From the NCBI RefSeq assembly GCF_024502345.1, contig NZ_JALDNN010000001.1: a stretch of DNA of 64,000 nt. One strand, 5' to 3'. The DNA comes from Escherichia coli. Lineage in GTDB: Bacteria; Pseudomonadota; Gammaproteobacteria; Enterobacterales; Enterobacteriaceae. This document shows, piece by piece, positions 7,274-64,000 of the stretch. Numbering within the stretch: position 1 is the first letter of the stretch; every line of letters starts with the position of its first letter. The position numbers and the translations under genes were made by a program. The notes under the pieces were generated by a model. The model was given only the letters and a program-made list of their open reading frames with translations, was not told the DNA's origin and did no database searches.

Positions 7274-10470
<3,197 letters not shown>

Positions 10471-41821: not shown

Positions 41822-41926
41822 CGTCGCCGGCTCGTTCGTCACAAGAAAAACCCGTCCCGAGACGAGGTGTCGCGGCTCGCGATGCCTCGTCGCCTCAACC
41901 TTTTCAACCTTCTAAGGAGCATCAGC

Positions 41927-44809: not shown

Positions 44810-45060
44810 TGGCGGGCGAGGCTGCCGTGTCCGACCCCAAGGGCCTGGCATGGGCAGCCTCCCTGGCCTCGATCGCGGTGGCGTTCGTGGCCGCGGGTCA
44901 CGCGGTCGTCTACAAGCGTGATCCGCGGTCGACCACGCCGTGGGGGCTGCTCATCAGCGGCGGCACTGCCCTCCCGCTCGCTGGCCATCCGTTTGCGTGA
45001 CGGTGCGGCCCGTCTGTTCACCTGATCCTCTGGCAACTCGACTTTCGAGGAACACAGCCC

Positions 45061-46788: not shown

Positions 46789-46875
46789 AAACAGTAGTAG
46801 GTGCCATTCAGAGTAAACCGACGGCTCTGTTCAGTGCGTCATCCAATTCGTCGGCATTGTTCAAGGAGAACCGAT

Positions 46876-47334
46876 ATGTCTGCATTGACTCCGTGGGACC
46901 CCTTCCGGGAACTGGATGAATTGCAAAACCGCCTGGCGACGATGTTCGGACGAATACCCCAGCGACAGGGCGCCCGTACCGGCAACGAAGCCATGACCAC
47001 GGCGGACTGGGCACCAATGGCGGACATCAGCGAGGATGAGAACGCATTCCTCCTCAAGCTGGATCTGCCGGAGGTCCCCAAGGATGCCGTGCGCGTCAGC
47101 GCGGAAAACGGTGTGCTCACCATCAGCGGCGAGCGCAAACTGGAAAAAGAGGAGCAGGGCAAGAAGTTCCACCGCATCGAACGTGCGTATGGCCGCTTTG
47201 TGCGCAGCTTTGTCTTGCCTGACAACGTTGATCCGACCAAGGTGACGGCTTCCATGAAAGACGGCGTACTGGAAGTGCGGCTTGTCAAGGCCGAGCAAGC
47301 CAAACCGAAACAGATTGAAATCTCAGTCAACTAA
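46876..47334 (+). CDS. small heat-shock protein (Hsp20 family), second copy
   Basis: ORF 46801..47334; start placed at MSALTPWDPFRELDELQNRLATMF after aaggag; alpha-crystallin core ...FLLKLDLPEVPKDAVRVSAENGVLTISGERK... Confidence 0.85.
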   Translation: MSALTPWDPFRELDELQNRLATMFGRIPQRQGARTGNEAMTTADWAPMADISEDENAFLLKLDLPEVPKDAVRVSAENGVLTISGERKLEKEEQGKKFHRIERAYGRFVRSFVLPDNVDPTKVTASMKDGVLEVRLVKAEQAKPKQIEISVN

Positions 47335-47356
47335 CTTCAATCAGGAGCCCAAGATC

Positions 47357-48271
47357 ATGAATATCAAACAGCCACAATACACCTTCTCCGCACTTGCCCT
47401 GGCGGTCGTCGTCGGACTGAGCGGACCGGCTCTGGCCCAATCGGCGGCAGGTTCTAGCCCAGGTGCTGCAGCCCCCTCTGCCGCATCCAAGGCGGCACAG
47501 CCACAAGTAGATGACAAGGCCGCCCGGGAAGCCGATAAAAAGCGTGCCGAGCTCACTCAAGACGCCATCACGGCGCTCACCAAGACCCAGGAGGCTTTGA
47601 CCCTCCTTGATGCAAAGAAGACCAAGGAGGCGCTTGCTGCGCTGGAACTGGCCAGCGGAAAGCTGGAACTGGTATTGGCACGTGACGCCAAACTTGCTTT
47701 GGCGCCGGTCGATGTACGCGTCATCACCCACGATATCCACGCCAACGTGGAATCGGTAAAGAAAGCGGTCAAGTTGTCTCGGGAGTTGTTGGGTGATGGC
47801 GAGGTGCAAAAGGCCCGGCCCATCGTTGCCAATCTGGCCAGCGAAATCGTAATCCAAACCGACAACCTTCCGATGGCAACGTACCCGGCAGCGATCAAGT
47901 CGGCCGCACGGCTCATCGACAGCGGCAAGATCGACAACGCCAAAGCGGAACTCGCCCGAGCACTGAACACGCTGGTGGTGACCTCGGTCGCCTTTCCTCT
48001 GCCCGTGCTACGGGCCGAAGCCGCGATGGCAAAAGCTGAAAAGCTGGCCGAGACCGACAGGCGCGATGCCAAGCAGAACGAGGAGCTCAGCACCTTGCTG
48101 TCGTCCGTGCGCACGGAGATCGAGATGGCGCAGATCCTGGGTTATGGCAAGAAGGCGGACTTCAAACCCATTTTCGATCAGGTGAAGTCCATTGAGCAAA
48201 AGTCGGCTGGTGGCAAAAGCGGCAAGGGATGGTTCGACGAGTTGAAGACGCGCATCCAAAAGCTGTTTTGA
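47357..48271 (+). CDS. yfdX: YfdX-family periplasmic protein (tLST YfdX1-like)
   Basis: ORF 47282..48271; start at MNIKQPQYTFSALALAVVVGLSGPALAQ (signal peptide); Ala/Lys-rich helical protein; position in tLST order. Confidence 0.65.
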   Translation: MNIKQPQYTFSALALAVVVGLSGPALAQSAAGSSPGAAAPSAASKAAQPQVDDKAAREADKKRAELTQDAITALTKTQEALTLLDAKKTKEALAALELASGKLELVLARDAKLALAPVDVRVITHDIHANVESVKKAVKLSRELLGDGEVQKARPIVANLASEIVIQTDNLPMATYPAAIKSAARLIDSGKIDNAKAELARALNTLVVTSVAFPLPVLRAEAAMAKAEKLAETDRRDAKQNEELSTLLSSVRTEIEMAQILGYGKKADFKPIFDQVKSIEQKSAGGKSGKGWFDELKTRIQKLF

Positions 48272-48373
48272 GGTGATGAAGGGGCTGACTGCTCTGTCGG
48301 TCAGTCTCGCGATGTTCGCATTCAGCCCCAACAGATTCGCCTATTTTCACTATCTCATACGAGGCATATCACC

Positions 48374-49261
48374 ATGAATGAGCAAACACCGAATCCCAAT
48401 GCGACGAACGAAGGAATAAACGAACAAGCCGCGGTAAGCAGCCTTCCTGTCAGTCCAGAGTCCAAGCCTGAAGTCGTCACGGAGGTACAGCCTGAGGTTC
48501 AGAAAGAAACGGACTCGCAGGCGGCAGACAAACGTAAACAAGTCCTCGATGAGGCAGTCTCGGCCTTGTCGCTGACCAAATCAGCGCTGGCCGCACTTGA
48601 CGGCAAGGACACTGCACGCGCATTGGCAACGCTGGCCGAAGTGACGGGAAAGCTGGAGCTGATCGTCGCGCGCGAACCCACGCTCGCCCTGGCCGGCGTT
48701 GATGTGCGCACCATCGTGCACGACTTGTTCGCCAACACGGAAACCATTGAGGCGATGACCGACGAGGCGCTGGATGCCCTCAAACATGGCGAGGTGCAAC
48801 AGGCTCGCCACGTGCTGGCTTTGCTGGCCAGTGAAATCGTGATCACGGTCACCAACATCCCTTTGGCGTCCTATCCCGCAGCCGTGAAGGCAGTCGTGCC
48901 GCTGATCGATCAGGGCAAGATCGAAGAAGCCAAAGCCGCGCTGCAGTCAGCGCTCAGCACGCTGGTCGAGGAGCGCAGCGTGCTTCCGCTGCCCGTCCTG
49001 CGTGCGAAGCTGCTCCTGAAGCGCGCCGAGCCTCTGGTAGAAGATGGTCAGCGCAGCGAAGCATCCAATGAGCGCCTGGAGACATTGTTGAACGAAGCCC
49101 GGCAGCAGTTGGAAATGGCAGAACTGCTGGGCTATGGAAAAAGGAAGGACTTTGAGCCCCTGTACGCTGAACTCAAGAAAATCAAGGAAAAGACGGGAGG
49201 GGGAGGCTTCGGAAAAGGCTGGCTCGATGAAGTCAAGGCAAAACTGTCCAGGTTGTTCTGA
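48374..49261 (+). CDS. yfdX: YfdX-family protein paralogue (tLST YfdX2-like); no obvious signal peptide
   Basis: 295-aa ORF sharing C-terminal motifs with the preceding gene (…LPLPVLRA…AEKLAE…ILGYGKK.DF.P…KGW.DE.K..…LF). Confidence 0.6.
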   Translation: MNEQTPNPNATNEGINEQAAVSSLPVSPESKPEVVTEVQPEVQKETDSQAADKRKQVLDEAVSALSLTKSALAALDGKDTARALATLAEVTGKLELIVAREPTLALAGVDVRTIVHDLFANTETIEAMTDEALDALKHGEVQQARHVLALLASEIVITVTNIPLASYPAAVKAVVPLIDQGKIEEAKAALQSALSTLVEERSVLPLPVLRAKLLLKRAEPLVEDGQRSEASNERLETLLNEARQQLEMAELLGYGKRKDFEPLYAELKKIKEKTGGGGFGKGWLDEVKAKLSRLF

Positions 49262-49270
49262 AACCGCTGG

Positions 49271-49295
49271 AGAGGGGGCGCATAGTGCCCCCTCT
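49271..49295 (+). terminator. GC-rich hairpin downstream of yfdX2 (possible intrinsic terminator; U-tract not immediately adjacent)
   Basis: agagggggc-gcatagt-gccccctct perfect 9-bp stem, followed ~20 nt later by tttgattttttattttg. Confidence 0.35.
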
Positions 49296-49350
49296 CTTGT
49301 CCCATGAGTGTTTGATTTTTTATTTTGTATAGATCTTTAGGAGATATTGC

Positions 49351-49962
49351 ATGAACACAGACACCATCACCGATTCCAGTGCGGATGACCCCACCAAAGC
49401 ACTGTGTTCGCTTAGCCAAAATTGGTGGCTTTTTGTGCTGCGCGGTGTCTTGGCATTGATTTTTGCAGCCCTCGCGTTCTGGATGCCACAATCGGCTCTG
49501 TTGGCCATGACCATCATGTTCGGCGCATTTTCCTTGGTCAATGGCGCGTTCAACTTGTTTGCAGCGGTGCGCCATATCCAGAAAAAAGAGCGCTGGGGCT
49601 GGTTGTTGTTCAGCGGCATTGTCGGCATACTTACGGGCGTCGTCGTCCTGGTTGCTCCTTGGGTCGCCACGATAGTCTTGGCTTCTTTTTTATGGGCTAG
49701 CGTGGGCTTCTGGGCGATTTTCACCGGTGTGCTGGAGATATCTGCCGCCGTTCGGCTGCGTCGGGAAATCAAGGGTGAAATCTGGCTTGCCCTCAGTGGA
49801 CTGCTCTCGATTATCCTTGGTGCTATCGTCTTGTGGATATTTTTTACCCGTCCGGTCGAGTCATTCGTGGCCGCAGGCTGGCTGTTGGGTTTCCATGCGG
49901 CAGTCTATGGCGTCACGCTTTTGTTCTTGAGTTGGAGTCTTCGCAAAACGCGCCTGGGGTAA
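49351..49962 (+). CDS. hdeD: HdeD-family acid-resistance membrane protein
   Basis: 203-aa ORF with ~6 hydrophobic segments (…WWLFVLRGVLALIFAALAFWMPQSALLAMTIMFGAFSLVNGAFNLFAAV…); tLST order. Confidence 0.75.
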   Translation: MNTDTITDSSADDPTKALCSLSQNWWLFVLRGVLALIFAALAFWMPQSALLAMTIMFGAFSLVNGAFNLFAAVRHIQKKERWGWLLFSGIVGILTGVVVLVAPWVATIVLASFLWASVGFWAIFTGVLEISAAVRLRREIKGEIWLALSGLLSIILGAIVLWIFFTRPVESFVAAGWLLGFHAAVYGVTLLFLSWSLRKTRLG

Positions 49963-50041
49963 GAGCGTGCCAAACCAAAATCTATGGATATGAGCATCCT
50001 CGATTCATGCCTCCATAGAAATGACATCGAAGGAGTCATAC

Positions 50042-51187
50042 ATGCAGATACAATATAGCTATCGAGCTATCGACAAAGAGTTTCATGAACCTTGGCAGAG
50101 AGCTTTGGGAAATGTGATCGAGCACGCCCTCAAGCCATTGCTCGACAAACACACTAAAGATTCAGCGCGACTTCAAATCGTCCTTGATCGCGACAAGATC
50201 AAGCGGCAATTTCTGGCCAGTGGCTATATGCACCTGCCCGGCAAAAAGATTGTCAGCGTTACTGCATCACATGACGAGCTGACGCCCCTCGCGCAGATGC
50301 TCGCACAGTCGTTGTTCCGTCAGGCCAAGAAGCATTTTGACCGACTGCATGCTCAGGATCAAATCAAGCGCAAAGCACGACGCGAGCGCTTGCGCGAGCT
50401 CAAGGTGCGGATTGCCGCAAAACCCGCATCAGCCGCCCATGAGGCCGAGGTGACCCGAATGCCTCTACTGTCGAAACTTGAGGCTGTCGCAAGGCGTGAG
50501 CTGGCTTATCTGCGGGCCGTCGGCGATTTACCGCGCGATTATCCGACGCTGCGCGACGTGGTGGATGAAGCGATTGTCCGAGCTAAGGTGGAATGGCAAT
50601 CCGTGCCGGGGGAAAAAGAGGCTTACACCGGTCTTTTGAAGCATCTGTTCGCCGTCCTGGATAACGAAGTGGCAAGCAGCCGGCAATTTGGCGAATTCGT
50701 TTCTCTGGACGCGCCGGTCGAACCGGATGCCCAAGACGTGGCCGAGGCCATGGTGGAAGAGGAAATCTTCGAATTTTATCAGCACGATGACACACTCAAG
50801 CTGGCCGATATTTTCGCTGGCAGTCAGCATCCCGATGTCGCAACGATCGCGGAACAGGAGGAGCTGATTGATCGGTCGAGCGAGTTCGCTTTTGCATTTG
50901 ACCTGCTGAAGGACATGCCGCGTTTGTGGCGGCGCATTTTTCTGCTTATCCGTGTGGACGGGCTGAATGCCAGCAGCGTCTCTGAAATCCTGCTGATTCC
51001 TAGTAAGGAAGATGCTGTCCAAAGGTGGCTCATGCAGGCCGAAGCATTCATCGCTGCTCATCTGGAAGAGGCCGGAGTAAGCAAAAACGGGAACGATTGG
51101 CTCCAAGGCGTTGATTGGCCGGCATTGTCTGTGACCCGAAGCGAGGCAGCCTCACTGTGGTCCAAGGAGGCGAACCATGAAGAATGA
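50042..51187 (+). CDS. hypothetical protein (tLST orf11); C-terminal segment resembles sigma-70 region 4 HTH
   Basis: ORF 50021..51187; ATG at 50042 preceded by aggag; C-terminal LKDMPRLWRRIFLLIRVDGLNASSVSEILLIPSKEDAVQRWLMQAEAFIAAHL. Confidence 0.5.
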   Translation: MQIQYSYRAIDKEFHEPWQRALGNVIEHALKPLLDKHTKDSARLQIVLDRDKIKRQFLASGYMHLPGKKIVSVTASHDELTPLAQMLAQSLFRQAKKHFDRLHAQDQIKRKARRERLRELKVRIAAKPASAAHEAEVTRMPLLSKLEAVARRELAYLRAVGDLPRDYPTLRDVVDEAIVRAKVEWQSVPGEKEAYTGLLKHLFAVLDNEVASSRQFGEFVSLDAPVEPDAQDVAEAMVEEEIFEFYQHDDTLKLADIFAGSQHPDVATIAEQEELIDRSSEFAFAFDLLKDMPRLWRRIFLLIRVDGLNASSVSEILLIPSKEDAVQRWLMQAEAFIAAHLEEAGVSKNGNDWLQGVDWPALSVTRSEAASLWSKEANHEE

Positions 51188-51617
51188 TCTTCACCTCGTC
51201 TGCCCGCATTGCCAGTCCATCAACCGCGTACCGACTGCGAAGCTATCGGAACATCCCAACTGTGGCCGCTGCCAGCAGCCCTTGTTCACGGGCGAGCCCA
51301 TCGAGTTGACCACGGCGACGTTCTCGCGCCACGTGGAGCGCAGCGATCTGCCGCTGCTGGTCGATTTCTGGGCGCCATGGTGCGGGCCGTGCAAGATGAT
51401 GGCGCCACAGTTCCAGCAAGCGGCGCACCAGCTCGAACCGACGATCCGGCTGGCGAAGGTGAATACCGAGGCTGAGCCCCACCTGGCCGCGCAGTTCGGT
51501 ATCCGCAGCATCCCGACGCTCGCCCTGTTCCAGGGTGGGCGGGAGATCGCCCGTCAGGCCGGCGTGATGGGCGCGCAGGACATCGTGCGCTGGACGTCGA
51601 CGCAAGTGGGACGCTGA
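51177..51617 (+). CDS. thioredoxin with N-terminal zinc-finger extension (Trx2-like)
   Basis: 146-aa ORF: CPHCQSINRV...CGRCQQPLF zinc ribbon and active site WAPWCGPCKMMAP. Confidence 0.85.
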   Translation: MKNDLHLVCPHCQSINRVPTAKLSEHPNCGRCQQPLFTGEPIELTTATFSRHVERSDLPLLVDFWAPWCGPCKMMAPQFQQAAHQLEPTIRLAKVNTEAEPHLAAQFGIRSIPTLALFQGGREIARQAGVMGAQDIVRWTSTQVGR

Positions 51618-51620
51618 CCG

Positions 51621-53336
51621 ATGCAGGGCTTGCTCGGCACTACGCTAATCCTGCTGGCGGCTTGCAGCCTGGCGGCGATGGCGACGGCGGCGTTCAGAGT
51701 GCCCGCCTTGCTGGGGTATCTCTCTGTCGGCGTTGTACTGGGCCCCTCAGTCATCGGCGTGATCGCGCCGGGGGAGACGCTGAGCTTTCTGTCCGAGCTG
51801 GGCGTGGCGCTGCTGTTGTTCATGGTCGGACTGGAATTCTCCCTCGGAGACTTCTGGCTCGCCCGCAGGACGGTGCTGATGGCGGGCGCTCTGCAGATGA
51901 TCGCCGTGGCCCCGCCGCTGATCCTGCTATTGATGTGGCTGGGGCAGCCCGGCCAGAGCGCCGCGCTGCTCGGCACTGCGGCGGCCATGTCGTCCACGGC
52001 GCTGGTCAGCCGACAACTGGCCGACCAAGGCGAGCTCACCACCCGCCACGGACGCAGTGCCATCGCCGTGCTGGTCTTTCAGGACCTGGCCAGCGTGCCC
52101 CTGCTGGCCTTGCTGGCGATCTGGGCGCGCGGCGACTCGCCGAAGATCGAGCATGTGCTGCTCGAAGTATTCGGTGTGCTGCTGCTGTTCGCGGCAGCGG
52201 CCCTCGCCTCGCGCCGTCTGTTGCATGGCCTGCTGGGCTGGGTGGCGCGGCGGGGCCACGAGGAATCGTTCGTGCTCGTCTCCTTGTGCGTGGTGGTGGC
52301 CGCCGCCGCCGCTGCGCACGCGGTCGGCGTATCTGCCGCCCTGGGGGCCTTCCTCGCCGGGATGGTGCTGGGCGAGAGCGACTTCCGGCACCACATGGAA
52401 AGCCACCTCAGGCCGTTTCGCGATGTGTTGTCGGGCGTGTTCTTCGTGACCATCGGCCTGCAACTGGACGCAGCACAGATTCTTTCGGCACCGCTGGCGG
52501 TGCTGGCGTGGCTGGTGGTGCTGGTACCGGTCAAGATCCTGCTCAATACACTGGCCTTGCGGGCGACGCGCCTGTCCGCCCTCGATGCCTGGCGCACGGG
52601 CATAGCGTTGGGGCACGGCGGCGAGTTCGCCCTGCTGTTGTTGGGCACGGTCTTGCAGCAGCATCTGATCCCCGCGACCGTCGTCCAACCCATGCTGGTC
52701 GCGCTGGTGCTCAGCATGGCCCTGGCACCGCTACTGATCCGCCATCACGATGTACTTGCCCGGTTCTTGAGCCGCACCGGCGGCGTCATTCAGCCACCCC
52801 AGGCTGAAGAAGTCGAGATCGCCGCGCAGACGACGCGATATCGAGACCATGTCATCATTTGCGGCGCGGGCGAGCTTGGCCTGACAGTCAGCGAGATTCT
52901 TCGCCACGCCGGCGTGGCGCATCTGCTGCTGGAGGCGGACGCGCAGAAGGTCGAGGCCGCGCGTGCCGCCGGCGCGCCGGTGTTCCATGCCGATGCCAGT
53001 CGGCCCGATACCTTGCTGGCTGCCGGCTTGACGCATGCACACTTGGTGGTGCTGACGTTCGCCCATGCCCAGCAAGCGTTGCGCATCGCCCAGGCGATTG
53101 CCGAGCACCGTCCGGCGCTGACCTTGTGGGTGTCATGCAGAAGTACGACCGCGGCCGATGCATTTCGCGCCATGCCCAACGTGCGCGTGTATCAGCAATC
53201 CTTTGCCGCAGCTATTGGGCTGGCGGAACAGGTGATGTCGACGCTTGGCATGTCGACCGAGCTGATTGAAGGACACATCAGCGCAATGCGCCGCCGTCTC
53301 GACAGCAGCCGTTTTCCAGGGAGTTCATCGTCATGA
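51621..53336 (+). CDS. kefB: KefB-like monovalent cation:proton antiporter-2 (CPA2) with C-terminal TrkA-N/RCK domain
   Basis: 571-aa ORF; 12-13 TM segments then Rossmann-type VIICGAGELG... regulatory domain. Confidence 0.8.
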   Translation: MQGLLGTTLILLAACSLAAMATAAFRVPALLGYLSVGVVLGPSVIGVIAPGETLSFLSELGVALLLFMVGLEFSLGDFWLARRTVLMAGALQMIAVAPPLILLLMWLGQPGQSAALLGTAAAMSSTALVSRQLADQGELTTRHGRSAIAVLVFQDLASVPLLALLAIWARGDSPKIEHVLLEVFGVLLLFAAAALASRRLLHGLLGWVARRGHEESFVLVSLCVVVAAAAAAHAVGVSAALGAFLAGMVLGESDFRHHMESHLRPFRDVLSGVFFVTIGLQLDAAQILSAPLAVLAWLVVLVPVKILLNTLALRATRLSALDAWRTGIALGHGGEFALLLLGTVLQQHLIPATVVQPMLVALVLSMALAPLLIRHHDVLARFLSRTGGVIQPPQAEEVEIAAQTTRYRDHVIICGAGELGLTVSEILRHAGVAHLLLEADAQKVEAARAAGAPVFHADASRPDTLLAAGLTHAHLVVLTFAHAQQALRIAQAIAEHRPALTLWVSCRSTTAADAFRAMPNVRVYQQSFAAAIGLAEQVMSTLGMSTELIEGHISAMRRRLDSSRFPGSSSS

Positions 53337-53830
53337 AATCAACACGCCTTAACCCATTTCAGGTCTTACGTGACCAATTGGCCATCATGAGTTTTTACGA
53401 GCGCTTCGAGCAGGTCGTCGCGCTCGTGCTGTCGGCGGTGATCGCCGTCATCATCGTGGTGTCGCTGTTCCAGCTCATCTCCATCGTCTTCACGCTGCTG
53501 GTTCTAGATGCCTTCAATCCCCTGGACCACGAGGTATTCCAGAGCGTGTTCGGCATGATCATGACGCTCTTGATCGCGATGGAGTTCAAGCATTCCATCG
53601 TGCGCGTGGCGCTGCGTCGGGACAGCATCATCCAGGTCAAGACGGTGGTCCTGATCGCGCTGATCGCACTCTCCCGCAAGTTCGTGATCCTCGACTCCAA
53701 CGCGAGCCCCGCAAAGATAGCCGCGCTGGCTAGCGCCACGCTGGCTCTGGGTGCGACCTACTGGCTGCTGCGCAAGCGCGGCGACCGCGCCGCCGAGACC
53801 TCTGAGCATGACCCGTCATCATCCCAGTGA
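53333..53830 (+). CDS. psiE: PsiE-family inner-membrane protein
   Basis: 165-aa ORF, four hydrophobic segments; position in tLST order; overlaps upstream and downstream genes. Confidence 0.6.
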   Translation: MKSTRLNPFQVLRDQLAIMSFYERFEQVVALVLSAVIAVIIVVSLFQLISIVFTLLVLDAFNPLDHEVFQSVFGMIMTLLIAMEFKHSIVRVALRRDSIIQVKTVVLIALIALSRKFVILDSNASPAKIAALASATLALGATYWLLRKRGDRAAETSEHDPSSSQ

Positions 53831-54773
53831 TCCGCGCACGGCGCTCTTGCAACACCGCTGGCTCAACCGCCTGCAGACCGGGCTGTTGGTCCTGACCCTG
53901 GTCGGGATCGCAGCCGCAGCAGGGAGACTGCCGTTTGGGGAAGGCTGCCTGTGGCTCGCGCTGTTTGCCATTGCAGGTGCGTTGCTGCTGGAACCGGTAG
54001 CCGCGTCGGCGCTGAGCTTGCGCCTGTACCGCGTACGGGCCTTGCACCCGCAAGAAGCCCACAAGATGTGGGCCCTATTGCGCGAGCTGCCCGCCCGTGC
54101 CGGTTTGCCCGCCACGCCGGTGCCGCACTATGTGCCCAGTGCCGTCGTCAACGCCTTCGCCACCGGATCGAAGCAGGAGGCATCGATCGCCCTCACCGAT
54201 GGCCTGCTGCGCAGCCTGAGCCCACGCGAGCTGGCGGGTGTGCTCGTGCACGAGGTCGCGCACATCGCTAATGAGGATCTGCGTGTCATGGGGCTGGCGG
54301 ATTCCGACAGTCGCCTCACGAGCCTACTGGCCCTTATGGGACAGATCGCGATCCAGCTCAGCCTGCCCGCGCAGCTGGTTGGCGCGGCGGAGGTCTATTG
54401 GCCTGGTCTATTGTTATTGGCCGCATCGCCCCAGCTGGCCCTGCTCGCACAGCTCGGCTTGTCTCGCGTGCGTGAGTTCGACGCTGACCGCCTTGCGGCG
54501 GAACTGACTGGCGACCCGCAGGGGCTGGCGTCCGTGCTGGCAAAAATCGAGCGGGTCAGCCGCTCCTGGCGTGCCTGGCTATGGCCGGGATGGGGCAATC
54601 CCGAGCACTCCTGCTTGCGTACGCGTCCGGCAACGCAAGAGCGCATTGCACGCCTGCTGACGTTGGCGCCTGGGCCAGCATCAGCGTTGCCACTCCGCGC
54701 GCCCCATTTTTTGCCGGAATCCGCTTTGGCGACGCGCCCACCGAGCTGGCGCCCGAGCGGGCTGTGGCGCTGA
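53808..54773 (+). CDS. M48-family zinc metalloprotease (HtpX-like)
   Basis: ORF 53751..54773; start placed at MTRHHPSDPRTALLQHRWLNRL; HExxH motif VLVHEVAHIANEDL; N-terminal TM segments. Confidence 0.75.
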   Translation: MTRHHPSDPRTALLQHRWLNRLQTGLLVLTLVGIAAAAGRLPFGEGCLWLALFAIAGALLLEPVAASALSLRLYRVRALHPQEAHKMWALLRELPARAGLPATPVPHYVPSAVVNAFATGSKQEASIALTDGLLRSLSPRELAGVLVHEVAHIANEDLRVMGLADSDSRLTSLLALMGQIAIQLSLPAQLVGAAEVYWPGLLLLAASPQLALLAQLGLSRVREFDADRLAAELTGDPQGLASVLAKIERVSRSWRAWLWPGWGNPEHSCLRTRPATQERIARLLTLAPGPASALPLRAPHFLPESALATRPPSWRPSGLWR

Positions 54774-54797
54774 TTGCCCATCAACAGGAGACGTCTC

Positions 54798-55949
54798 ATG
54801 GCCTATCTCGACCCGTACCAACGCCCCGCGCCGGACCGCTTCGTCCGGCGCGGGCTCTTCATCACCGCCTGCATTGCCGCGCTCATGCTGCTGTGGCAGT
54901 TTCTGCCCGCCATCGAGGCATGGTTCAGTCCGCGCGAGGCAGCAGAACGCACCGTGATGGCGCGTGGCGATCTGGCGGCGGACGAGAAAACCACCATCGA
55001 ACTGTTCGAAAAATCGCGCGCCTCGGTGGTCTACATCACCACCGCGCAATTAGTACGCGATGTCTGGACGCGCAACGTGTTCTCCGTGCCGCGCGGCACT
55101 GGCTCGGGCTTCATCTGGGACGACGCCGGCCACGTCGTCACCAACTTCCACGTCATCCAGGGCGCGTCCGAAGCCACCGTCAAACTGGCCGACGGCCGCG
55201 ACTACCAGGCCGCGCTGGTGGGGATGAGCCCCGCGCACGACATCGCCGTGCTCAAGATCGGCGTCGGTTTCAAGCGCCCGCCGGCCGTGCCGGTCGGCAC
55301 CAGTGCCGACCTCAAGGTGGGTCAGAAGGTGTTCGCTATCGGCAACCCCTTCGGCCTGGACTGGACGCTCACCACAGGTATCGTCTCCGCGCTCGACCGC
55401 TCGTTGCCGGGAGAAGCGGGCGGCCCGGCCATCGATCACCTGATCCAGACCGACGCCGCCATCAACCCCGGCAATTCCGGTGGCCCGCTGCTCGATTCGG
55501 CTGGGCGGCTGATCGGAATCAATACCGCCATCTACAGTCCGTCTGGCGCCTCGGCCGGCATAGGCTTTGCGGTGCCGGTCGATACCGTCATGCGCGTGGT
55601 GCCGCAACTCATAAAGACCGGCAAGTACATCCGTCCGGCACTGGGCATCGAGGTGGATGAGCAGATCAACGCGCGTCTGCAGGCGCTGACCGGCAGTAAG
55701 GGCGTATTCGTATTGCGCGTGACGCCGGGCTCGGCGGCGCACAGGGCCGGGCTCGTCGGCGTCGAGGTCACCGCAGGCGGCATCGTGCCCGGCGATCGCG
55801 TTATCAGCATCGACGGTATCGCCGTCGACGACGTCACCACATTACAGGCCCGGCTAGACGACAAGAACGTTGGAGATGTTGTGGTCTTGTTAGTGGAGCG
55901 GGCCGGCAAGACTCGCGAGATGCTTGTGGAACTACAACCGGGAGTTTGA
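54798..55949 (+). CDS. degP: DegP/HtrA-family periplasmic serine protease with single PDZ domain
   Basis: ORF 54774..55949; start at MAYLDPYQRP after aggag; catalytic H (TNFHVI), D (DIAVLKI), S (GNSGGPLL); C-terminal PDZ. Confidence 0.85.
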   Translation: MAYLDPYQRPAPDRFVRRGLFITACIAALMLLWQFLPAIEAWFSPREAAERTVMARGDLAADEKTTIELFEKSRASVVYITTAQLVRDVWTRNVFSVPRGTGSGFIWDDAGHVVTNFHVIQGASEATVKLADGRDYQAALVGMSPAHDIAVLKIGVGFKRPPAVPVGTSADLKVGQKVFAIGNPFGLDWTLTTGIVSALDRSLPGEAGGPAIDHLIQTDAAINPGNSGGPLLDSAGRLIGINTAIYSPSGASAGIGFAVPVDTVMRVVPQLIKTGKYIRPALGIEVDEQINARLQALTGSKGVFVLRVTPGSAAHRAGLVGVEVTAGGIVPGDRVISIDGIAVDDVTTLQARLDDKNVGDVVVLLVERAGKTREMLVELQPGV

Positions 55950-56173: not shown

Positions 56174-56770
56174 TTACAGGCGCACCTCTCCTGCGCTTGC
56201 CAGCAAATGTCGGCGGGCCATCCATAGGTTCGACAGGGCAAACAGCGTCACCAGTTGTGCAGTGTTCCTCACCAGCCCTCGGAAACGTACCTTGGTGTAG
56301 CCGAACTGCCGCTTGATCACGCGAAACGGGGGCTCTACCTTCGCTCGCACTTGCGCCTTGGCCTTCTCGATCTTGCGCTTGGCTTTGTACAGGGCGCTGC
56401 GTTTATCGAGCATCTTGTAGGTGCTGCGGCGTGCTGCGACCTGCCAGATCACTTCTCGGTCGGCATGCTCGGAGCGCTTTTCGACGCCGGTGTAGCCGGC
56501 ATCGGCGCAGACGACGTTCTCGTCGCCGTGCAGCAGCTTGTCGACCTGGGTGACATCCGCCACGGTGGCTGCCGTGCCCACCACGCTGTGTACCAGCCCC
56601 GATTCATCATCAACGCCGATGTGCGCCTTCATGCCAAAGTAATACTGGTTCCCCTTCTTGGTCTGGTGCATTTTCGGGTCGCGCTTGCCGTCCTGGTTCT
56701 TGGATGAACTGGGCGCGTGGATCAGCGTGGCATCGACGATAGTCCATCTTGATAATATCGGGCCGCTCAA
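56174..56770 (-). pseudogene. IS5-family transposase fragment (C-terminal ~190 aa; 5' part absent)
   Basis: ...DATLIHAPSSSKNQDGKRDPKMHQTKKGNQYYFGMKAHIGVDDESGLVHSVVGTAATVADVTQVDKLLHGDENVVCADAGYTGVEKR... DDE_Tnp_1-type motifs; no N-terminal domain upstream. Confidence 0.65.
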
Positions 56771-56911
56771 CGCTCGGGTACCAGGAGGTGACGGACCCGT
56801 ATACCAAAGAAAAATACTTTGAGTACGCCCATGACGGCAAACTGATGGGGCAGCTACTGATACCCTCGAACCCTGACAATCAGGAATAAAACAACGACAA
56901 AGGAGACAAGA

Positions 56912-57379
56912 ATGACAATACTTTCACTAAGTCGGTTTATGCTGGCGGGTGTACTGCTCGCGAGCTTTAATGCCTCTGCTATCCCGGGGTTCTGGCAGCA
57001 GGGTTACGGTCAGGGCAATACGGAATACAGCGTGACCGAAGCCAGCGGAAAGACGTTTACCATCAACTGCACAGGGAACCCGGACCAGAATGGTTTCTAT
57101 CAGCATTCAGTCTTTCTTACCCTTGCCGATGACAAGATGGTCAGTTCGCACGATGACGACACTACTATCACCGTAGTGATGGATCACCAGCAGTACATTA
57201 TTCCGTCCAGCCTGGGCTGGCGTAACGGCGATAACGCCTGGTTTGACTTCATCAGCAATATCTCTGAGGCCGGGCAGTTCGACGTCTACGTCAATGACCA
57301 CAAAGCAGGGACCTTCACTGCGGACCGGAAGAACACTGAGAAAGTTCTGTCCACTCTCGGAGACTGCAGCAACGACTGA
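56912..57379 (+). CDS. secreted hypothetical protein with signal peptide (YkfB/YfjT-like by size and context)
   Basis: 155-aa [26 protein letters not shown]... ; two Cys (CTGNP...DCSND); precedes DUF905/antirestriction cluster as in CP4-type prophages. Confidence 0.45.
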
Positions 57380-57455
57380 TAGTAGTATCTTCCCCAGCAA
57401 ATCCACCCCGACAGCTAGCAGGCTGCCGGGGTTTTCTTTTATCAGGAGCCCGAAA

Positions 57456-57695
57456 ATGACCCAATCCGTGTTGCTGCCACCGGGGCCTTTCACCCGGAGA
57501 CAAGCGCAAGCGGTCACTACCACGTACAGCAATATCACACTCGAAGACGACCAGGGCAGTCACTTCCGTCTGGTGGTTCGTGATACTGAAGGCCGGATGG
57601 TCTGGCGGGCATGGAACTTTGAGCCGGATGCCGGTGAAGGTCTTAACCGCTATATCCGCACCTCAGGCATCCGTACAGACACGGCCACCCGCTGA
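57456..57695 (+). CDS. DUF905-family small protein (YkfF-like)
   Basis: ORF 57243..57695; start at [79 protein letters not shown]. Confidence 0.6.
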
Positions 57696-57792
57696 TCGCG
57701 AAGCATTTACCCGCATTCACCTCCCCGAACACACTTTATATCCCCATACGCCAGCCATCGCCGCTGGCGTTTTTATTGACGGAGACATACCC

Positions 57793-58251
57793 ATGACAAC
57801 ACAGACGCAGCACGACCTCGCACCCGCTAACCAACCCGAATTTGAACTGACCGTCACGCCGGTCCCCGATGAACAGCGTATCGATTTCTGGCCACAGTAC
57901 TTTGGCGCTATCCCGCAGTGGCTACTCCTGGAGCCGCATATCTTCGCCTGGATGGACCGCTTCTGTGAGGGCTACAGCGGTGGTATCTGGTCGTTCTACA
58001 CCCTCAGCAATGGCGGCGCATTTATGTCCCCCGAGCCTGACAACGATGAGACATGGCGTCTGTTTAACTGCCTGAACGGTAACGATGCCCAAATGAGTGC
58101 AGAAGCAGCAGGTATTGCTGTCTGCCTGATTGCGTATAGCCACCATGCCTGCCGTACAGAATGTGACGCGATGACCGCACACTATTACCGCCTGCGGGAG
58201 TATGCCATGCAACATCCAGAGGCTCACGCCATTCTGCGTATTATCGACTGA
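57793..58251 (+). CDS. antirestriction protein (KlcA/ArdB-like; YafX/YfjX family)
   Basis: ORF 57580..58251; start at MTTQTQHDLAPANQPEFELTVTPVPDEQRIDFWPQYFGAIPQWLLLEPHIFAWMDRFCEGYSGGIWSFYTLSNGGAFM... Confidence 0.75.
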   Translation: MTTQTQHDLAPANQPEFELTVTPVPDEQRIDFWPQYFGAIPQWLLLEPHIFAWMDRFCEGYSGGIWSFYTLSNGGAFMSPEPDNDETWRLFNCLNGNDAQMSAEAAGIAVCLIAYSHHACRTECDAMTAHYYRLREYAMQHPEAHAILRIID

Positions 58252-58266
58252 CCGAAGGAGCAACAG

Positions 58267-58743
58267 ATGAAACAGCTTTCCTTTTTACCCGGCGAGATGA
58301 CGCCACAGGACCGGCGTCTCATTCAGCGGGCGCTCAGGGCTCTGGACCGCCACCTGCATGAGCCCGGCGTAGCCTTCACCTCTACCCACGCCGTACGTGA
58401 ATGGCTGCGACTGCATATGGCCGCGCTTGAGCGGGAAGAGTTCCGGGTGTTGTATCTGGACAACCAGAATCAGTTGATTGCCCATGAAACGCTCTTCACC
58501 GGCACGATTAACCGCACCGAGGTGCATCCCCGGGAGGTGGTCAAACGTGCTCTGCACTTCAACGCGGCGGCGGTGATACTCGCGCATAACCATCCTTCCG
58601 GCGAGACGACACCTAGCCAGGCCGACAAAACCCTCACGCAGCGACTGGTTCAGGTGCTTCAGCTGGTGGATATCCGTGTCCTTGACCATCTGATTGTCGG
58701 TGGCAGGCAAATCTATTCGTTCGCAGAACACGGTCTGCTTTGA
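58267..58743 (+). CDS. RadC-like JAB/MPN-domain protein (YkfG/YeeS/YfjY family)
   Basis: 158-aa ORF with JAMM motif ...AAAVILAHNHPSGETTPSQADKTLTQRL... Confidence 0.8.
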   Translation: MKQLSFLPGEMTPQDRRLIQRALRALDRHLHEPGVAFTSTHAVREWLRLHMAALEREEFRVLYLDNQNQLIAHETLFTGTINRTEVHPREVVKRALHFNAAAVILAHNHPSGETTPSQADKTLTQRLVQVLQLVDIRVLDHLIVGGRQIYSFAEHGLL

Positions 58744-58751
58744 GGTATTAC

Positions 58752-58973
58752 ATGAAAATTATCAGTAAACGCAGGGCAATGACGATATACCGCCAGCATC
58801 CTGAGTCCCGAATCTTTCGCTACTGCACCGGCAAATACCAGTGGCACGGTAGCGTCTGTCATTACACCGGCAGGGACGTTCCGGATATCGCCGGAGTCCT
58901 CGCGGTATACGCCGAACGCCGCCAGGACCGCAATGGGCCCTATACCTGCCTGATGAGCATCACCCTGAACTGA
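58752..58973 (+). CDS. DUF987-family protein (YkfH/YeeT/YpjJ-like)
   Basis: ORF 58740..58973; start at MKIISKRRAMTIYRQHPESRIFRYCTGKYQWHGSVCHYTGRDVPDIAGVLAVYAERRQDRNGPYTCLMSITLN. Confidence 0.65.
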   Translation: MKIISKRRAMTIYRQHPESRIFRYCTGKYQWHGSVCHYTGRDVPDIAGVLAVYAERRQDRNGPYTCLMSITLN

Positions 58974-58991
58974 CAATAGTGGAGAACTGTA

Positions 58992-59671
<680 letters not shown>

Positions 59672-60249
59672 ACATTGCGTACAACCTTCCCGATTTACAT
59701 TTCTGAACTTCCTCCCTTGTTTACCTATTGCGTAATGCGCCTGCTACTACCCGGCAGGCGCGTTATCTTTTTACGGACAAACAATCATGCAACCAGAAGT
59801 TGAAGTATTAACCGATCATAATGAGCTAATTTGTTCGAGCTTTATTGAACACATTGCCAACACATTAAATTTAGGAGTGGTGTACAACTAAACCTGCAGC
59901 CAAGGATGTATAGTGAGCGAAGCCCTATCAGGCCTTTTTGGTCAGTAGATAAGATTGATCTTCGTTGATAGAATTTACTTACACCAGCTGTTACATTAAG
60001 ATAATTTTTTGGTGGGAGAATGATAAGATCTTACGTAACAATTTGATTTTAATGGTGCGATAATAGGAACATAACACACCACATATAACCATTGATAAAC
60101 ATACATATTTTCTTGTTTCATCTTTATAAATGCCCCCTTTTGTGCCCCCGCCTTGGTTTTCATACGACTCGATGAGCCTTTCATCGAGTCGTTAATCTCA
60201 CCAATTTCTTCACAGACCGTGCAAACCTTCTCAGCTCTTTAAGCCCCCC

Positions 60250-60618
60250 TCACTGACGCGATCGGCTAAGAACAATATTACTTACTTCCCGATAAGAACA
60301 ACTGTTCATTAATCCGCATGCTTTCCTGGCATGAAGGATATCTGTCACGGTCAGATATGGCGCTTGTTCCTGTGAGGAAAATCCACTGCGATCGATACGG
60401 ACTAACTCATACTTCTCCACCAGAAAGTTGATAGCATTAGCCAGGGTGATACCGGCATCGATATGTTCCTGTATGACGGTTTCATCACAGAAAGGTGTAT
60501 CGTTTAGCGTCAGGCCATAATGCTGTTCCAGCAGACGACTAAGTAACATTTGCCAGATAGTCACGGGCGATAGGCATGGCTTCGCCGCCCGCATATTTTT
60601 TGCAGGTTGAAATTTCAT
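60250..60618 (-). CDS. type IV toxin, CbtA family, second divergent copy
   Basis: 122-aa [83 protein letters not shown]... Confidence 0.8.
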
Positions 60619-60638
60619 TTTTTCTCTCGTGAAAGTAA

Positions 60639-60956
60639 TTAACGTTGAGTGGGATAAACGGCGATGTATACGTAGCCGCAGCTGCCAAGGGTATCGGCTT
60701 CGCAGGTAAAACCGTCGTGGTACAGGGTGACGCTGTGGGCATGACGAGGATTCAGTTCACCGGAGGTCAGCATCAATTCCATCTGGCTGATAAAGTGCGG
60801 GAAAGTTTCATCCAGTTTCCGGCATTCGGCGTCACTGAATTGACCGGTGTTGCTGGCCCGGTCAGCCAGATAATGCAGCCGGTTCCCTTCTTGCACAAGG
60901 CGGGCTCCCAGGCGCGGCGTGATATCCCGCTGCAGGCCCCATGTGATGTTACTCAT
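60639..60956 (-). CDS. type IV antitoxin, CbeA family, second copy
   Basis: 105-aa [108 protein letters not shown] (~85% identical to first copy). Confidence 0.8.
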
Positions 60957-60975
60957 TGATAAACCTCTTTTATTT

Positions 60976-61197
60976 TCAATTCAGGGTGATGCTCATTAGA
61001 CAGGCATAAGGCCCGTTGCGATCCTGGCGGCGTTCGGCGTATATCGCCAGCACACCGGGAATGTCAGGAACCACCTTACCGGTGTAATGACAGACACTGC
61101 CATGCCACTGGTATCTGCCAGTGCAGAATCGAAAAATGCGGGAGGCCGGATGCTGACGGTAAATCGTCATTGCCCGGCGTTTACTGATAATTTTCAT
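60976..61197 (-). CDS. DUF987-family protein, second copy
   Basis: ORF 60976..61209; start at MKIISKRRAMTIYRQHPASRIFRFCTGRYQWHGSVCHYTGKVVPDIPGVLAIYAERRQDRNGPYACLMSITLN. Confidence 0.65.
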   Translation of the reverse strand: MKIISKRRAMTIYRQHPASRIFRFCTGRYQWHGSVCHYTGKVVPDIPGVLAIYAERRQDRNGPYACLMSITLN

Positions 61198-61205
61198 GTC
61201 ATACC

Positions 61206-61688
61206 TCAAAGCAAACCGTGTTCAGCGAACGACAATATCTGCGTGCCACCGACGATGAGATGGTCAGGCACACGGATATCAACGAGCTGAAGCGCCTGCA
61301 CCAGACGCTGCGTGACAGCTTTATCAGCCTGACTGGGTGTGGTGTCACCGGAAGGGTGGTTATGCGCAAATAACACTGCTGCCGCATTGAAATACAGGGC
61401 CCGCTTGACCACCTCACGGGGATGAACCTCGGTGCTGCTGATGGAACCGGCAAACAGGATTTCGTGGGTAATCAACTGGTTCTGCTGGTTCAGGTACAGC
61501 ACCATAAACTCTTCGCGCTCCAGTCCCGCCATTTTCAGTTTCAGCCAGTCACGGGCAGCCTGAGTGGAGGTGAATGCCACACCTGTTTCTCGCAGGTGTC
61601 GGTCAAGCAGCGTTAAAGCGCGTTTTACCGTGCGTTGTGCGGCCAATGGAAGTGCCGTAGCCTGTGGGATAAGTGACTGTTCCATCAT
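61206..61688 (-). CDS. RadC-like JAB/MPN-domain protein, second copy
   Basis: 160-aa ORF ...AAAVLFAHNHPSGDTTPSQADKAVTQRLVQALQLVDIRVPDHLIVGG... Confidence 0.8.
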   Translation of the reverse strand: MMEQSLIPQATALPLAAQRTVKRALTLLDRHLRETGVAFTSTQAARDWLKLKMAGLEREEFMVLYLNQQNQLITHEILFAGSISSTEVHPREVVKRALYFNAAAVLFAHNHPSGDTTPSQADKAVTQRLVQALQLVDIRVPDHLIVGGTQILSFAEHGLL

Positions 61689-61696
61689 AAGTATCC

Positions 61697-62587
61697 TTAA
61701 TCAATAATGCGCAGAATGGCGCTGGATTCAGGGTGCTGCAGAACGTAATCCCGCAGGCGGTAATAGTGTTCAGTCATGGCATTGCATTCGGTGCGACAGG
61801 TGTGATGGCTGTATTCAATCAGGCAGACAGTGATACCTGCGGCTTCCGCGCTCATTTGCGCACTATTGCCGTTCATGCCGTTGAACAGGTGCCATTTATC
61901 GTCACCGTCAGCATCAGGGGCCATAAACGCTCCGCCATTGCTGAGCGTATAAAAGGACCAGATACCGAAAGTCATCTCCGACTGGCTGCCGAAGCGAACT
62001 CCGGCGCGGATATGCTGTGCGCTACCGTCACCAAAGTTCACGTAGCCTCCATTGTCATGACCGTTATTCAGGGACAGCCCCTGCCAGATATACTGAAGCT
62101 GCGGCTCCAGTATCAGGCCATTGGTCACACTGAACGGCAGACCCGTTTCCAGCGAACCCAGCCAGCCCCAGCCGTGGGTAGCGAAACTGTCTGCATCAGA
62201 CGTCGCTTTCAGGTTATGACGGGAGCCCTGAGCCACCACATCTGTCCACAGGCCGCTGGCGGCATGCACGGCGGTCAGATAACCGCCCAGGCTGTACACA
62301 TCATCACGGGCACTCCCGGCACGGGAGCGGTCATCGTCTTTTATATCAACAGAAGAATGTCCCGCTGCACCATACACACCGGCTTTCAGCGAAGAGTTGC
62401 TCAGCAAGTCGCCGCCCAGTTGTACAAAGCCGTAGCTGCCGCTGCTTTCCGGTATCGCACCCTGCGCAATTCCGCCGTTATTTTCATGCCCCATATGACC
62501 ACCCTGGATGCGCCCCCAGACTCCGCTGCCACCTTTGACCGCGCTGCGCTGGTTGTAGCTACCTGCCAGTGCGCGGTCATAGTCCAT
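61697..62587 (-). pseudogene. in-frame fusion: Ag43-like autotransporter beta-domain fragment (N-terminal ~207 aa) + C-terminal half of antirestriction protein
   Basis: ...LEPQLQYIWQGLSLNNGHDNGGYVNFGDGSAQHIRAGVRFGSQSEMTFG (Ag43/flu C-terminal beta-barrel segment) joined to IWSFYTLSNGGAFMAPDADGDDKWHLFNGMNGNSAQMSAEAAGITVCLIEYSHH...ILRIID (matches residues ~66-152 of the intact antirestriction gene at 57793-58251). Confidence 0.6.
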
Positions 62588-62646
62588 GCTCTGCGCAAAC
62601 AGCGAAGCATAAAGAGCAACTTCAGCACGATAGCCAGCTTCGCTGG

Positions 62647-63012
62647 TCAGATACCCACAGCTTCACCCGCCAGACAGGGCGCGTCGTTGCAGTTCAGCAG
62701 CAGGCTGACCAGTCGACGGTCCAGCCCCGGAAACAGATCGGCTACACCTGTACGATGAGCGAAGGTCAGCACATCCAGCTCGGCCTGCGCACCACTCACG
62801 CCCGTCCGCAGGCGGTAACAACCGTTGCTACATTCAAGATCCAGATACATCAGCCGTTCGCGAAAATCGCGGTACAGAGTACGAGCAGATACACCAAACT
62901 CTGCTGTCAGCCTGCGCATATTCAGCGTTTCACCTGCAACGAGGCGACTGATAATCAGCGACAGCCTGATCGCCAGCCTGTCGTGGCGGCGCTCTGTCTG
63001 TGTCATTATCAT
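62647..63012 (-). pseudogene. HTH transcriptional regulator fragment (YfjR-like, N-terminal ~105 aa only)
   Basis: [54 protein letters not shown]... HTH then early stop; only ~60 bp separates it from the Ag43 fragment. Confidence 0.45.
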
Positions 63013-63232
63013 TTCTCCATACGAGTTAACTGACTGAAAGGGTTATGATTCTAAAGAAGGGGTCTGACAGGGTATGTCCGGGGCAATAACTATTTTTCGA
63101 TGGACAGGAAGCCACTGCTCACTGGGTAAGCCGGGGTTTTTGTTCAATTAATCAGCAATACAAGAAGAGGTGAATTGACAGGGCATGTCATTCTTTAACG
63201 AGGCATTAACTTTTCAGATGCAGAATCTGAAT

Positions 63233-63979
63233 TTAAACAGACTGAAACTGTGACAACATCGTTTCCGCCATCACCCACAGCGCACGGTTGAGTTTTACGT
63301 CCCCGTCAATGCCACGCACCGCACGGGTATGCGTTCGCCCGCCTTTAGCATTACGTCCACTAAGCCCGCCCTTAATCAGGTTTTCCTGTACACGCTGATA
63401 AGTGGTCCACAGATCATTGCTCTCATCCTGCCAGCGGCGTGGGGAGAGTATCTGCGATTCATTAACAGGCTGGTGGTCCTCACCAAAGCGATACGTAAGC
63501 GCTGCTTTAGCAAGTGCCTGCTGCGCAGGTGGCGGTAGCATCAGAGACTGCATGGCATCGCGTTTCTCTTCCACCCGGTCAAAAATCCCAAGCACTTCAT
63601 AAGCCCCTTCAATCACCTGACTCACCACATCACCTTTGTGTGGTACCCGCACCTCACCAAACGACTCACCGCAGACAAGCCCGTTCTGACACACCGCACG
63701 AAATAATCCCGGCAGCATTTGATACGAACTGGTGCCATCATGAGAGTTAAGCAGAATGATTTCCGGCACCTGTTTACCTGTAATTTGCCCCTCCCGACGC
63801 AGGCGAAGCATGTGCTTGGTGTGTTCCCGACGCCCCGGGTCACGCACGCGGGTCTGACAGGCAAAGAATGGCTGAAAGCCTTCGCGCTGCAGGTTGTCCA
63901 GCAGGGATATGGTTGGAATATAGGTATAACGTTCGCTGCGGGATTTGTGTTTGTCCTGACTGAAAACGCTGGGCACCAC
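63233..63979 (-). CDS. DUF932-family protein (YafZ/YfjQ-like), CP4-type prophage remnant; true start may lie beyond the window end
   Basis: 248-aa ORF ...ILLNSHDGTSSYQMLPGLFRAVCQNGLVCGESFGEVRVPHKGDVVSQVIEGAYEVLGIFDRVEEKRDAMQSLML... Confidence 0.55.
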   Translation of the reverse strand: MVPSVFSQDKHKSRSERYTYIPTISLLDNLQREGFQPFFACQTRVRDPGRREHTKHMLRLRREGQITGKQVPEIILLNSHDGTSSYQMLPGLFRAVCQNGLVCGESFGEVRVPHKGDVVSQVIEGAYEVLGIFDRVEEKRDAMQSLMLPPPAQQALAKAALTYRFGEDHQPVNESQILSPRRWQDESNDLWTTYQRVQENLIKGGLSGRNAKGGRTHTRAVRGIDGDVKLNRALWVMAETMLSQFQSV

Positions 63980-64000
63980 ACGAAACAGCTCTTCACGGGT

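Follow-up and report, generated by a model that had tools for sequence, protein, structure and literature searches.

An in-frame Ag43-antirestriction chimera and two short-repeat deletions in a CP4-type island module of Escherichia coli

The chimeric reading frame and its neighbourhood

The stretch of Escherichia coli DNA analysed here (the window, 64,000 nucleotides) carries at 56779-64000 two CP4-type island modules arranged tail to tail, whose CbtA-type toxin genes converge (59267-59671 on the plus strand, 60250-60618 on the minus strand). Aligned with each other in inverted orientation, the two modules share about 81% of their nucleotides along about 1.26 kb. Their genes follow the order known from the CP4-44, CP4-57 and CP4-6 modules, namely GTPase, DUF932, YfjR, (Ag43), antirestriction, RadC, DUF987, antitoxin and CbtA-type toxin. 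In general, 'flu' and 'yee' modules, together with their remnants, are common in the islands of E. coli (PMC11537424; PMC6480617). The second module of the window (module 2), whose genes lie on the minus strand, contains the following features:

60250-60618, minus strand: CbtA-type toxin gene, intact module gene
60639-60956, minus strand: YeeU/CbeA-type antitoxin gene, intact module gene
60976-61209, minus strand: DUF987 gene, intact module gene
61206-61688, minus strand: RadC/JAB-domain gene, intact, directly downstream of the chimera with a gap of 8 nt
61697-62587, minus strand: chimeric open reading frame of 296 aa, identical in sequence to RefSeq WP_072215940.1
61697-61966, minus strand: remnant of an ArdB/KlcA-type antirestriction gene, codons 66-154 plus stop (270 nt), codons 1-65 deleted
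61963-61966, unstranded: junction 1, a 4-nt microhomology (TACC on the plus strand, GGTA on the gene strand)
61967-62655, minus strand: Ag43 remnant, codons 611/612-841 of 947, 100% identical to positions 9623-10315 of the intact locus L001 described below
62651-62655, unstranded: junction 2, a 5-nt microhomology (ATACC on the plus strand, GGTAT on the gene strand) that makes the TGA stop of the regulator
62647-63012, minus strand: truncated YfjR-like regulator, residues 1-119 of 228, WYL domain lost
63233-64000, minus strand: DUF932 gene, upstream of the truncated regulator and running off the window end

The chimeric frame, which appears with an ATG start in the list of open reading frames of the window, is composed of two parts of different origin. 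Specifically, residues 1-207 correspond to residues 634-840 of the Ag43 adhesin, and residues 209-296 to residues 67-154 of an ArdB/KlcA-type antirestriction (Ard) protein. Residue 208, which stands between them, is a glycine whose GGT codon is common to both parents (Gly841 of Ag43 and Gly66 of Ard), and the reading frame is preserved across it.

Profile searches recognise both parts. Residues 1-208 match the NCBIfam Ag43/Cah model NF033177 at positions 630-842 of 948 (E 4e-95), with a score of 319.8 bits where the family cut-off is 1200, and the Ag43 part is therefore to be regarded as a fragment. The Pfam Autotransporter model aligns with residues 23-213 at model positions 1-193 of 255 (E 3.5e-23), positions 194-255 being missing, while the Pfam model PF03230 (Antirestrict) aligns with residues 208-296 at positions 6-92 of 92 (E 9.9e-36). 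At the level of single alleles, residues 1-208 are identical to residues 634-841 of the 947-aa Ag43 protein WP_115626798.1, and residues 208-296 share 78% identity (69/89) with residues 64-152 of the product of the intact antirestriction gene of module 1 (57793-58251). These matches bear out an earlier note, made from the letters of this DNA, which had described the frame as some 207 residues of Ag43 beta-domain fused in frame to the C-terminal part of an antirestriction protein like that of module 1. The note had called the retained antirestriction portion the "C-terminal half" of the protein; it is indeed the C-terminal part, but it amounts to almost the whole Pfam core and includes the C-terminal helix with the ArdB antirestriction motif region.

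The Ag43-derived DNA reaches position 62655, that is, 68 nt beyond the ATG of the frame. No start codon is present in the interval 62588-62655, and the frame begins at the first methionine downstream of junction 2, which is M634 of Ag43. The sequence preceding this codon, read directly, is GCGCAGAGC-ATG and offers no well-spaced Shine-Dalgarno element. In addition, no sigma-70-like promoter was found on the minus strand within 61100-63300.

Two deletions relative to an intact parent module

A megablast search with positions 61000-64000 shows that the arrangement is absent from all 5426 complete E. coli genomes, three of which give a 100% match in two pieces, spread across 2315 bp instead of 1656. 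The best intact relative is the island of E. coli Z226-5 (NZ_CP159644.1, locus L001), in which the whole module lies on one strand in the order CbtA toxin, YeeU antitoxin, DUF987, RadC, antirestriction (154 aa), Ag43 (947 aa), WYL regulator (228 aa), DUF932 and GTPase. This island was used as the mapping reference in place of K-12 CP4-44, which the earlier note had recommended and which proved unsuitable: in CP4-44 the place of the ArdB gene, between flu and yeeS, is taken by yeeR, and YeeR is unrelated to the chimeric frame and has no relevant Pfam domain.

A BLAST alignment of the window with L001 resolves into three colinear blocks interrupted by exactly two gaps, with flanks that are 99.9-100% identical:

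Block 1: window 56779-61966, corresponding to L001 3780-8967, 99.9% identity
Block 2: window 61963-62655, corresponding to L001 9623-10315, 100% identity
Block 3: window 62651-64000, corresponding to L001 12550-13899, 99.85% identity

Neighbouring blocks overlap by 4 nt and by 5 nt, respectively, and the two gaps agree with the previous estimate of at least two deletions. The first deletion comprises 659 bp (L001 8968-9626) bounded in the parent by two copies of GGTA, of which the window keeps one. It took Ag43 codons 842-947, a 140-bp spacer and antirestriction codons 1-65, and it left antirestriction codon 66/67 in frame behind Ag43 codon 841. A microhomology-mediated deletion with its junction near 61966 had been anticipated, and both its nature and its position are confirmed by the two copies of GGTA in the parent, 659 bp apart, and by the mapping to 61963-61966. 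The motif shared at the joint had also been foreseen, but as a G-rich one, and GGTA is not particularly so. Likewise, the predicted loss of Ag43 sequence and of the 5' part of the antirestriction gene was correct, whereas the intervening gene thought to have disappeared with them has no counterpart in the intact relative, where only the 140-bp spacer separates the two genes.

The second deletion comprises 2239 bp (L001 10316-12554) bounded in the parent by two copies of GGTAT, again with one copy kept in the window. It took Ag43 codons 1-610, regulator codons 120-228 and, between the two genes, a spacer of 72 bp with the promoter region of Ag43. The joint creates the codons ATC-TGA, so that the regulator ends after residue 119. 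The truncated product has 118 of 119 identities to residues 1-119 of the intact 228-aa WYL-domain protein, as expected from the truncation already suspected for this YfjR-like gene, and the YfjR/YafY-type architecture, in which an N-terminal DNA-binding part is followed by a WYL domain, is not found in it. Its residues 118-119 (Gly-Ile) are unchanged only because GGTATA and GGTATC (62647-62655) encode the same two amino acids. Public gene calls place the start of the truncated regulator at the third ATG, which gives the 119-aa product. Downstream, the radC, DUF987, antitoxin and toxin genes, all of them intact, would probably still be transcribed together from the surviving promoter region of the regulator.

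Both joints are devoid of filler or inserted DNA and of IS elements, and both deletions are of the short-direct-repeat type, with two repeats in the colinear parent and one in the product. Spontaneous deletions between short direct repeats are reportedly described in Albertini et al. 1982, a study to which PMC11537424 refers, and the window resembles them in that a repeat of 4-5 nt is present twice in the parent and once in the product. Both deletions in module 2, that of 659 bp at GGTA and that of 2239 bp at GGTAT, would have been independent of RecA and would have occurred through slippage or illegitimate recombination between these very short repeats, and the first of them would have kept the reading frame by chance (1 in 3). 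As this deletion is in frame, an internal Met codon of Ag43 opens a frame of 296 aa that ends at the antirestriction stop.

The two deletions may represent two separate events or one complex event. Among the 5426 complete E. coli genomes, compared at an identity of at least 99%, there is no intermediate carrying a single deletion, and the proteins predicted for junction 1 alone (929 aa) and for junction 2 alone (314 aa) are absent from a collection of about 15 billion proteins. The absence of these two proteins counts against the present explanation, and the 9-mer common to the two acceptors, presented below, fits independent random slippage less well than a directed or a single complex event.

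Distribution and fate of the product

The exact 296-aa protein is already present in RefSeq as WP_072215940.1, under the name 'antirestriction protein [Escherichia coli]' and with no pseudogene or fusion flag. At least 23 public contigs carry it, among which are isolates in NCBI, gut metagenomes in ENA and read assemblies of Logan, and the truncated 119-aa regulator is found on 22 contigs. Over the 2027 bp around the junctions, nine of the ten carrier contigs retrieved are 100% identical and the tenth differs by one base, which indicates that the carrier contigs represent one clonal allele.

These data also bear on the assembly itself. A collapse or mis-join within island modules could be suspected, as the modules are multi-copy repeats in E. 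coli and the arrangement is missing from every complete RefSeq genome of this species in the collection. However, both junctions are found in all ten contigs retrieved from the at least 23 carriers, which derive from different assemblers, projects and sample types, and overlaps of 4-5 nt cannot arise from de Bruijn or overlap assemblers. An artefact is therefore so improbable as to be practically negligible. The two junctions, present in every retrieved carrier contig, thus provide a lineage marker.

A natural family of full-length proteins with the same architecture, the competing possibility raised in the earlier note, was sought and none was found, the only protein match that covers the entire frame being the identical allele WP_072215940.1. 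Other chimeras of Ag43 and antirestriction sequence, such as P0105 (202 aa) and P0104 (275 aa), are doubly truncated too, but break at different points; they are parallel decay products that arose by separate truncations and do not constitute a protein family. In the protein collection, WP_072215940.1 belongs to a cluster whose representative is a fragment of 75 aa, and the chimera thereby escapes similarity searches. The 75-aa members of this cluster (P0003) were considered as further deletion products and rejected, as they are frameshifted full-length genes.

The intact Ag43, antirestriction and regulator alleles of the parent (L001 8698-12905) also occur in Citrobacter koseri, Enterobacter, Klebsiella and Salmonella. 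Since the parent alleles are common to several genera, the module is horizontally mobile, and the distribution indicates a recent horizontal spread of module 2. The sources of the exact Ag43 allele name mostly Citrobacter koseri or multispecies Enterobacteriaceae, and the clusters of the regulator and antirestriction alleles, at 90% identity or more, are dominated by Citrobacter, Klebsiella, Salmonella and Enterobacter.

With regard to its fate, the chimera is in all probability a tolerated, non-functional pseudogene or gene-fusion remnant, generated by two deletions in a decaying island, and its 296-aa product, if there is one, would be devoid of function. This reading is based on the loss of the signal peptide, of the passenger domain and of the final strands of the barrel from the Ag43 part, on the loss of the N-terminal third from the Ard part, and on the lack of a good ribosome-binding site. 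In particular, the chimera is identical over residues 1-208 to an allele of the Ag43/Cah (flu) adhesin, which is common to E. coli, Citrobacter, Enterobacter and others, but it differs from that adhesin in several respects. It starts at residue 634 and thus contains neither the Ag43 signal peptide (ESPR) nor the passenger (alpha) domain; the C-terminal beta-barrel translocator is incomplete, with codons 842-947 deleted and the last third of the barrel model missing; and the promoter region is gone. The comparison with the ArdB/KlcA family (PF03230; structures 2WJ9 and 2KMG; YafX and YfjX of K-12) leads to a similar picture, in that model positions 6-92 of 92 are kept whereas the first 65 residues are replaced by the Ag43 fragment.

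The structural consequences of this replacement can be evaluated on known folds. The intact parent antirestriction protein matches the ArdB crystal structure 2WJ9 with an E of 4e-68 and the KlcA structure 2KMG with an E of 1e-23, and in KlcA five helices and five strands make up one rigid globular domain (PMC2836571). With parent residues 1-65 of 154 gone, the complete single-domain fold of ArdB/KlcA (strands A-E, helices 1-5) is not present in the chimera. The break would fall at about KlcA residue 52/53, where helix 2 has ended and strand B begins, so that strand A and helices 1-2 would be lost while strands B-E and helices 3-5 would be kept.

Alternatively, the chimera might be a working protein maintained by selection, such as a still active antirestriction core with a new N-terminal extension. 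The frame is in fact open across the joint, the Pfam Antirestrict core is almost complete, the allele is unchanged across many isolates and metagenomes, and RefSeq lists a protein and not a pseudogene. Nevertheless, the carriers are essentially clonal (ten contigs, one of which differs by one base over 2 kb), and their persistence is consequently a weak argument for selection. Moreover, a third of the single-domain ArdB/KlcA fold is missing, the Ag43 part is a cytoplasmic fragment of a membrane barrel, the start codon lies in a poor context, and an intact paralogue is available 4 kb away in module 1. On the strength of these sequence features, a selected function appears very unlikely; the C-terminal core might possess residual antirestriction activity.

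Considered as a remnant of decay, the chimera is an instance of an ordinary and known type of event, in which a deletion between short repeats fuses two genes of a decaying island, and its sequence is already deposited under a misleading name. The annotation should be corrected, WP_072215940.1 being an Ag43'-'ArdB chimera and not an antirestriction protein, and its 119-aa neighbour a truncated regulator.

A recurrent deletion end-point

The antirestriction end of junction 1 is found again in other fusions. Specifically, the Ard gene is entered at one and the same position, GGT^ATCTGGTCC (GGT^ATCTGG, codons 66/67), by four independent 5' partners:

Window fusion: 5' partner Ag43 codon 841, overlap GGTA
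L013 fusion: 5' partner GTPase codon 77, overlap T
L014 fusion: 5' partner GTPase codon 122, overlap TA
L182/L183 fusion (two runs): 5' partner AT-rich non-coding DNA, donor ending in ...GAGGGT

This site is used by 4 of about 9 independent Ard events, other acceptors lying at codons ~27 (L181), 44 (L145), 49 (L184) and 99 (L015, L050). The acceptor of junction 2 in Ag43, CTGGTAT^CTGACC, shares with the Ard site the 9-mer TGGTATCTG. In the window, the two acceptors (61959-61966 and 62648-62655, minus strand) carry GGTATCTG, and both are TGGTATCTG in the intact parent. An independent internal deletion of Ag43 (L048) ends at the same Trp-Tyr-Leu codons as junction 2, and GGTA or TA lies within the overlap of most of the junctions examined. 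The Ard site and the Trp-Tyr-Leu site of Ag43 therefore look like a deletion hot spot.

It could be hypothesised that, in the CP4-type islands of Enterobacteriaceae, one-sided deletions set out again and again from TGGT^ATCTG, in Ard and in the same 9-mer of Ag43, where the sequence would direct a nick, a break or a pause of replication; the two deletions of the window would be among the products. A fixed end, variable partners and minimal homology are what such a process is expected to leave, and this is the pattern observed at the Ard site, where the four partners are joined through 1 to 4 nt of microhomology; the use of the identical 9-mer by junction 2, the end-point of L048 and the recurrence of GGTA or TA in the overlaps point in the same direction. 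Similarly, the deletions of Michel and Ehrlich 1986 at the M13 and pC194 origins are said to be anchored at the replication nick site, and they too have one fixed end-point, many variable partners and little homology. The candidate site examined here differs from those origins in that it lies inside a coding sequence and has no significant hairpin. The short-repeat type of deletion, for its part, differs from the present case in that here the acceptor is reused by independent events with overlaps as short as 1-2 nt, and repeat length alone does not predict reuse. As an agent, one could speculate about an island-encoded gpII-like nuclease of the YfjJ/YagK family, or about another site-specific enzyme, joining a fixed end to variable upstream partners; an 'inovirus Gp2 family protein' is in fact encoded in these islands.

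Several observations stand against a directed break. The sample of fusions is small and was collected through protein hits, a procedure that favours in-frame fusions, and the motif was defined after the data had been seen. Other Ard acceptors lie at other codons, and some Ag43 deletions, such as P0026, P0112 and P0115, lie elsewhere too and, as inferred from the K-12 allele, have no GGTA or TA in the overlap. A scan for more fusions by the downstream 32-mer gave matches in 31 GTDB species genomes, at least 120 metagenome stretches and 23 viral contigs; among the matches listed there was no further fusion at the hot spot, but one at another codon (L145) and some frameshifts, and about 180 other Ard genes from these species genomes, metagenomes and viral contigs, again among the matches listed, were undisturbed at the site. 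DNA folds of four natural contexts of the hot spot gave z-scores from -0.41 to +0.85 and thus no support for a hairpin.

The abundance of the motif is also of limited help. The window contains the 8-mer GGTATCTG 6 times where 0.96 copies would be expected, and L001 contains it 7 times where 0.34 would be, but several of these copies are Trp-Tyr-Leu codons or lie at paralogous positions. Since the excess derives in part from these common codons and from paralogy, it has been set aside as independent evidence. A literature search on nick-anchored deletions returned nothing directly relevant. To our knowledge, there is no enzyme that recognises TGGT^ATCTG, and among the recognition sites familiar to us (Chi, IS1/IS10 ends, relaxase nic sites, Ter, Vsr and restriction sites) we know of none that gives a convincing match. 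On balance, a directed break is an unlikely origin of the two deletions, and the preferred reading remains that of short-repeat deletions in a decaying island. If upheld by a full census, the reuse of the end-point would point to a site-directed process that shapes the decay of very common enterobacterial islands.

Islands of this type are riddled with short-homology deletions. In L015 (3500-4010), a putative PglZ-like fragment, recognised on reading the translated sequence, is joined to Ag43 at GGT|TACCTG. In L049 (3001-3900), an in-frame fusion at GGT^ATCAGAGG links Ag43 to the YeeU antitoxin, and in L047 (3747-4542, strain KFu022) a DUF932 pseudogene adjoins RadC directly, the intervening genes being absent.

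Finally, the other end of the island segment deserves mention. The similarity of module 1 to the Z226-5 island begins at 56779, inside a YfjS/YafY-like gene, and an IS5-family transposase fragment (56174-56779, profile positions 113-285 of 285) adjoins this position. Given that the similarity starts beside the IS5 fragment, the upstream end of module 1 appears to be truncated as well, next to a heat-resistance locus (transmissible stress-tolerance locus) at about 41867-55949. This locus encodes ClpK (41867-44809, 2132 bits against a cut-off of 1900) and also an FtsH-like protease, a thioredoxin, a KefB/C-like antiporter, an HtpX-like protease and a DegP-like protease.
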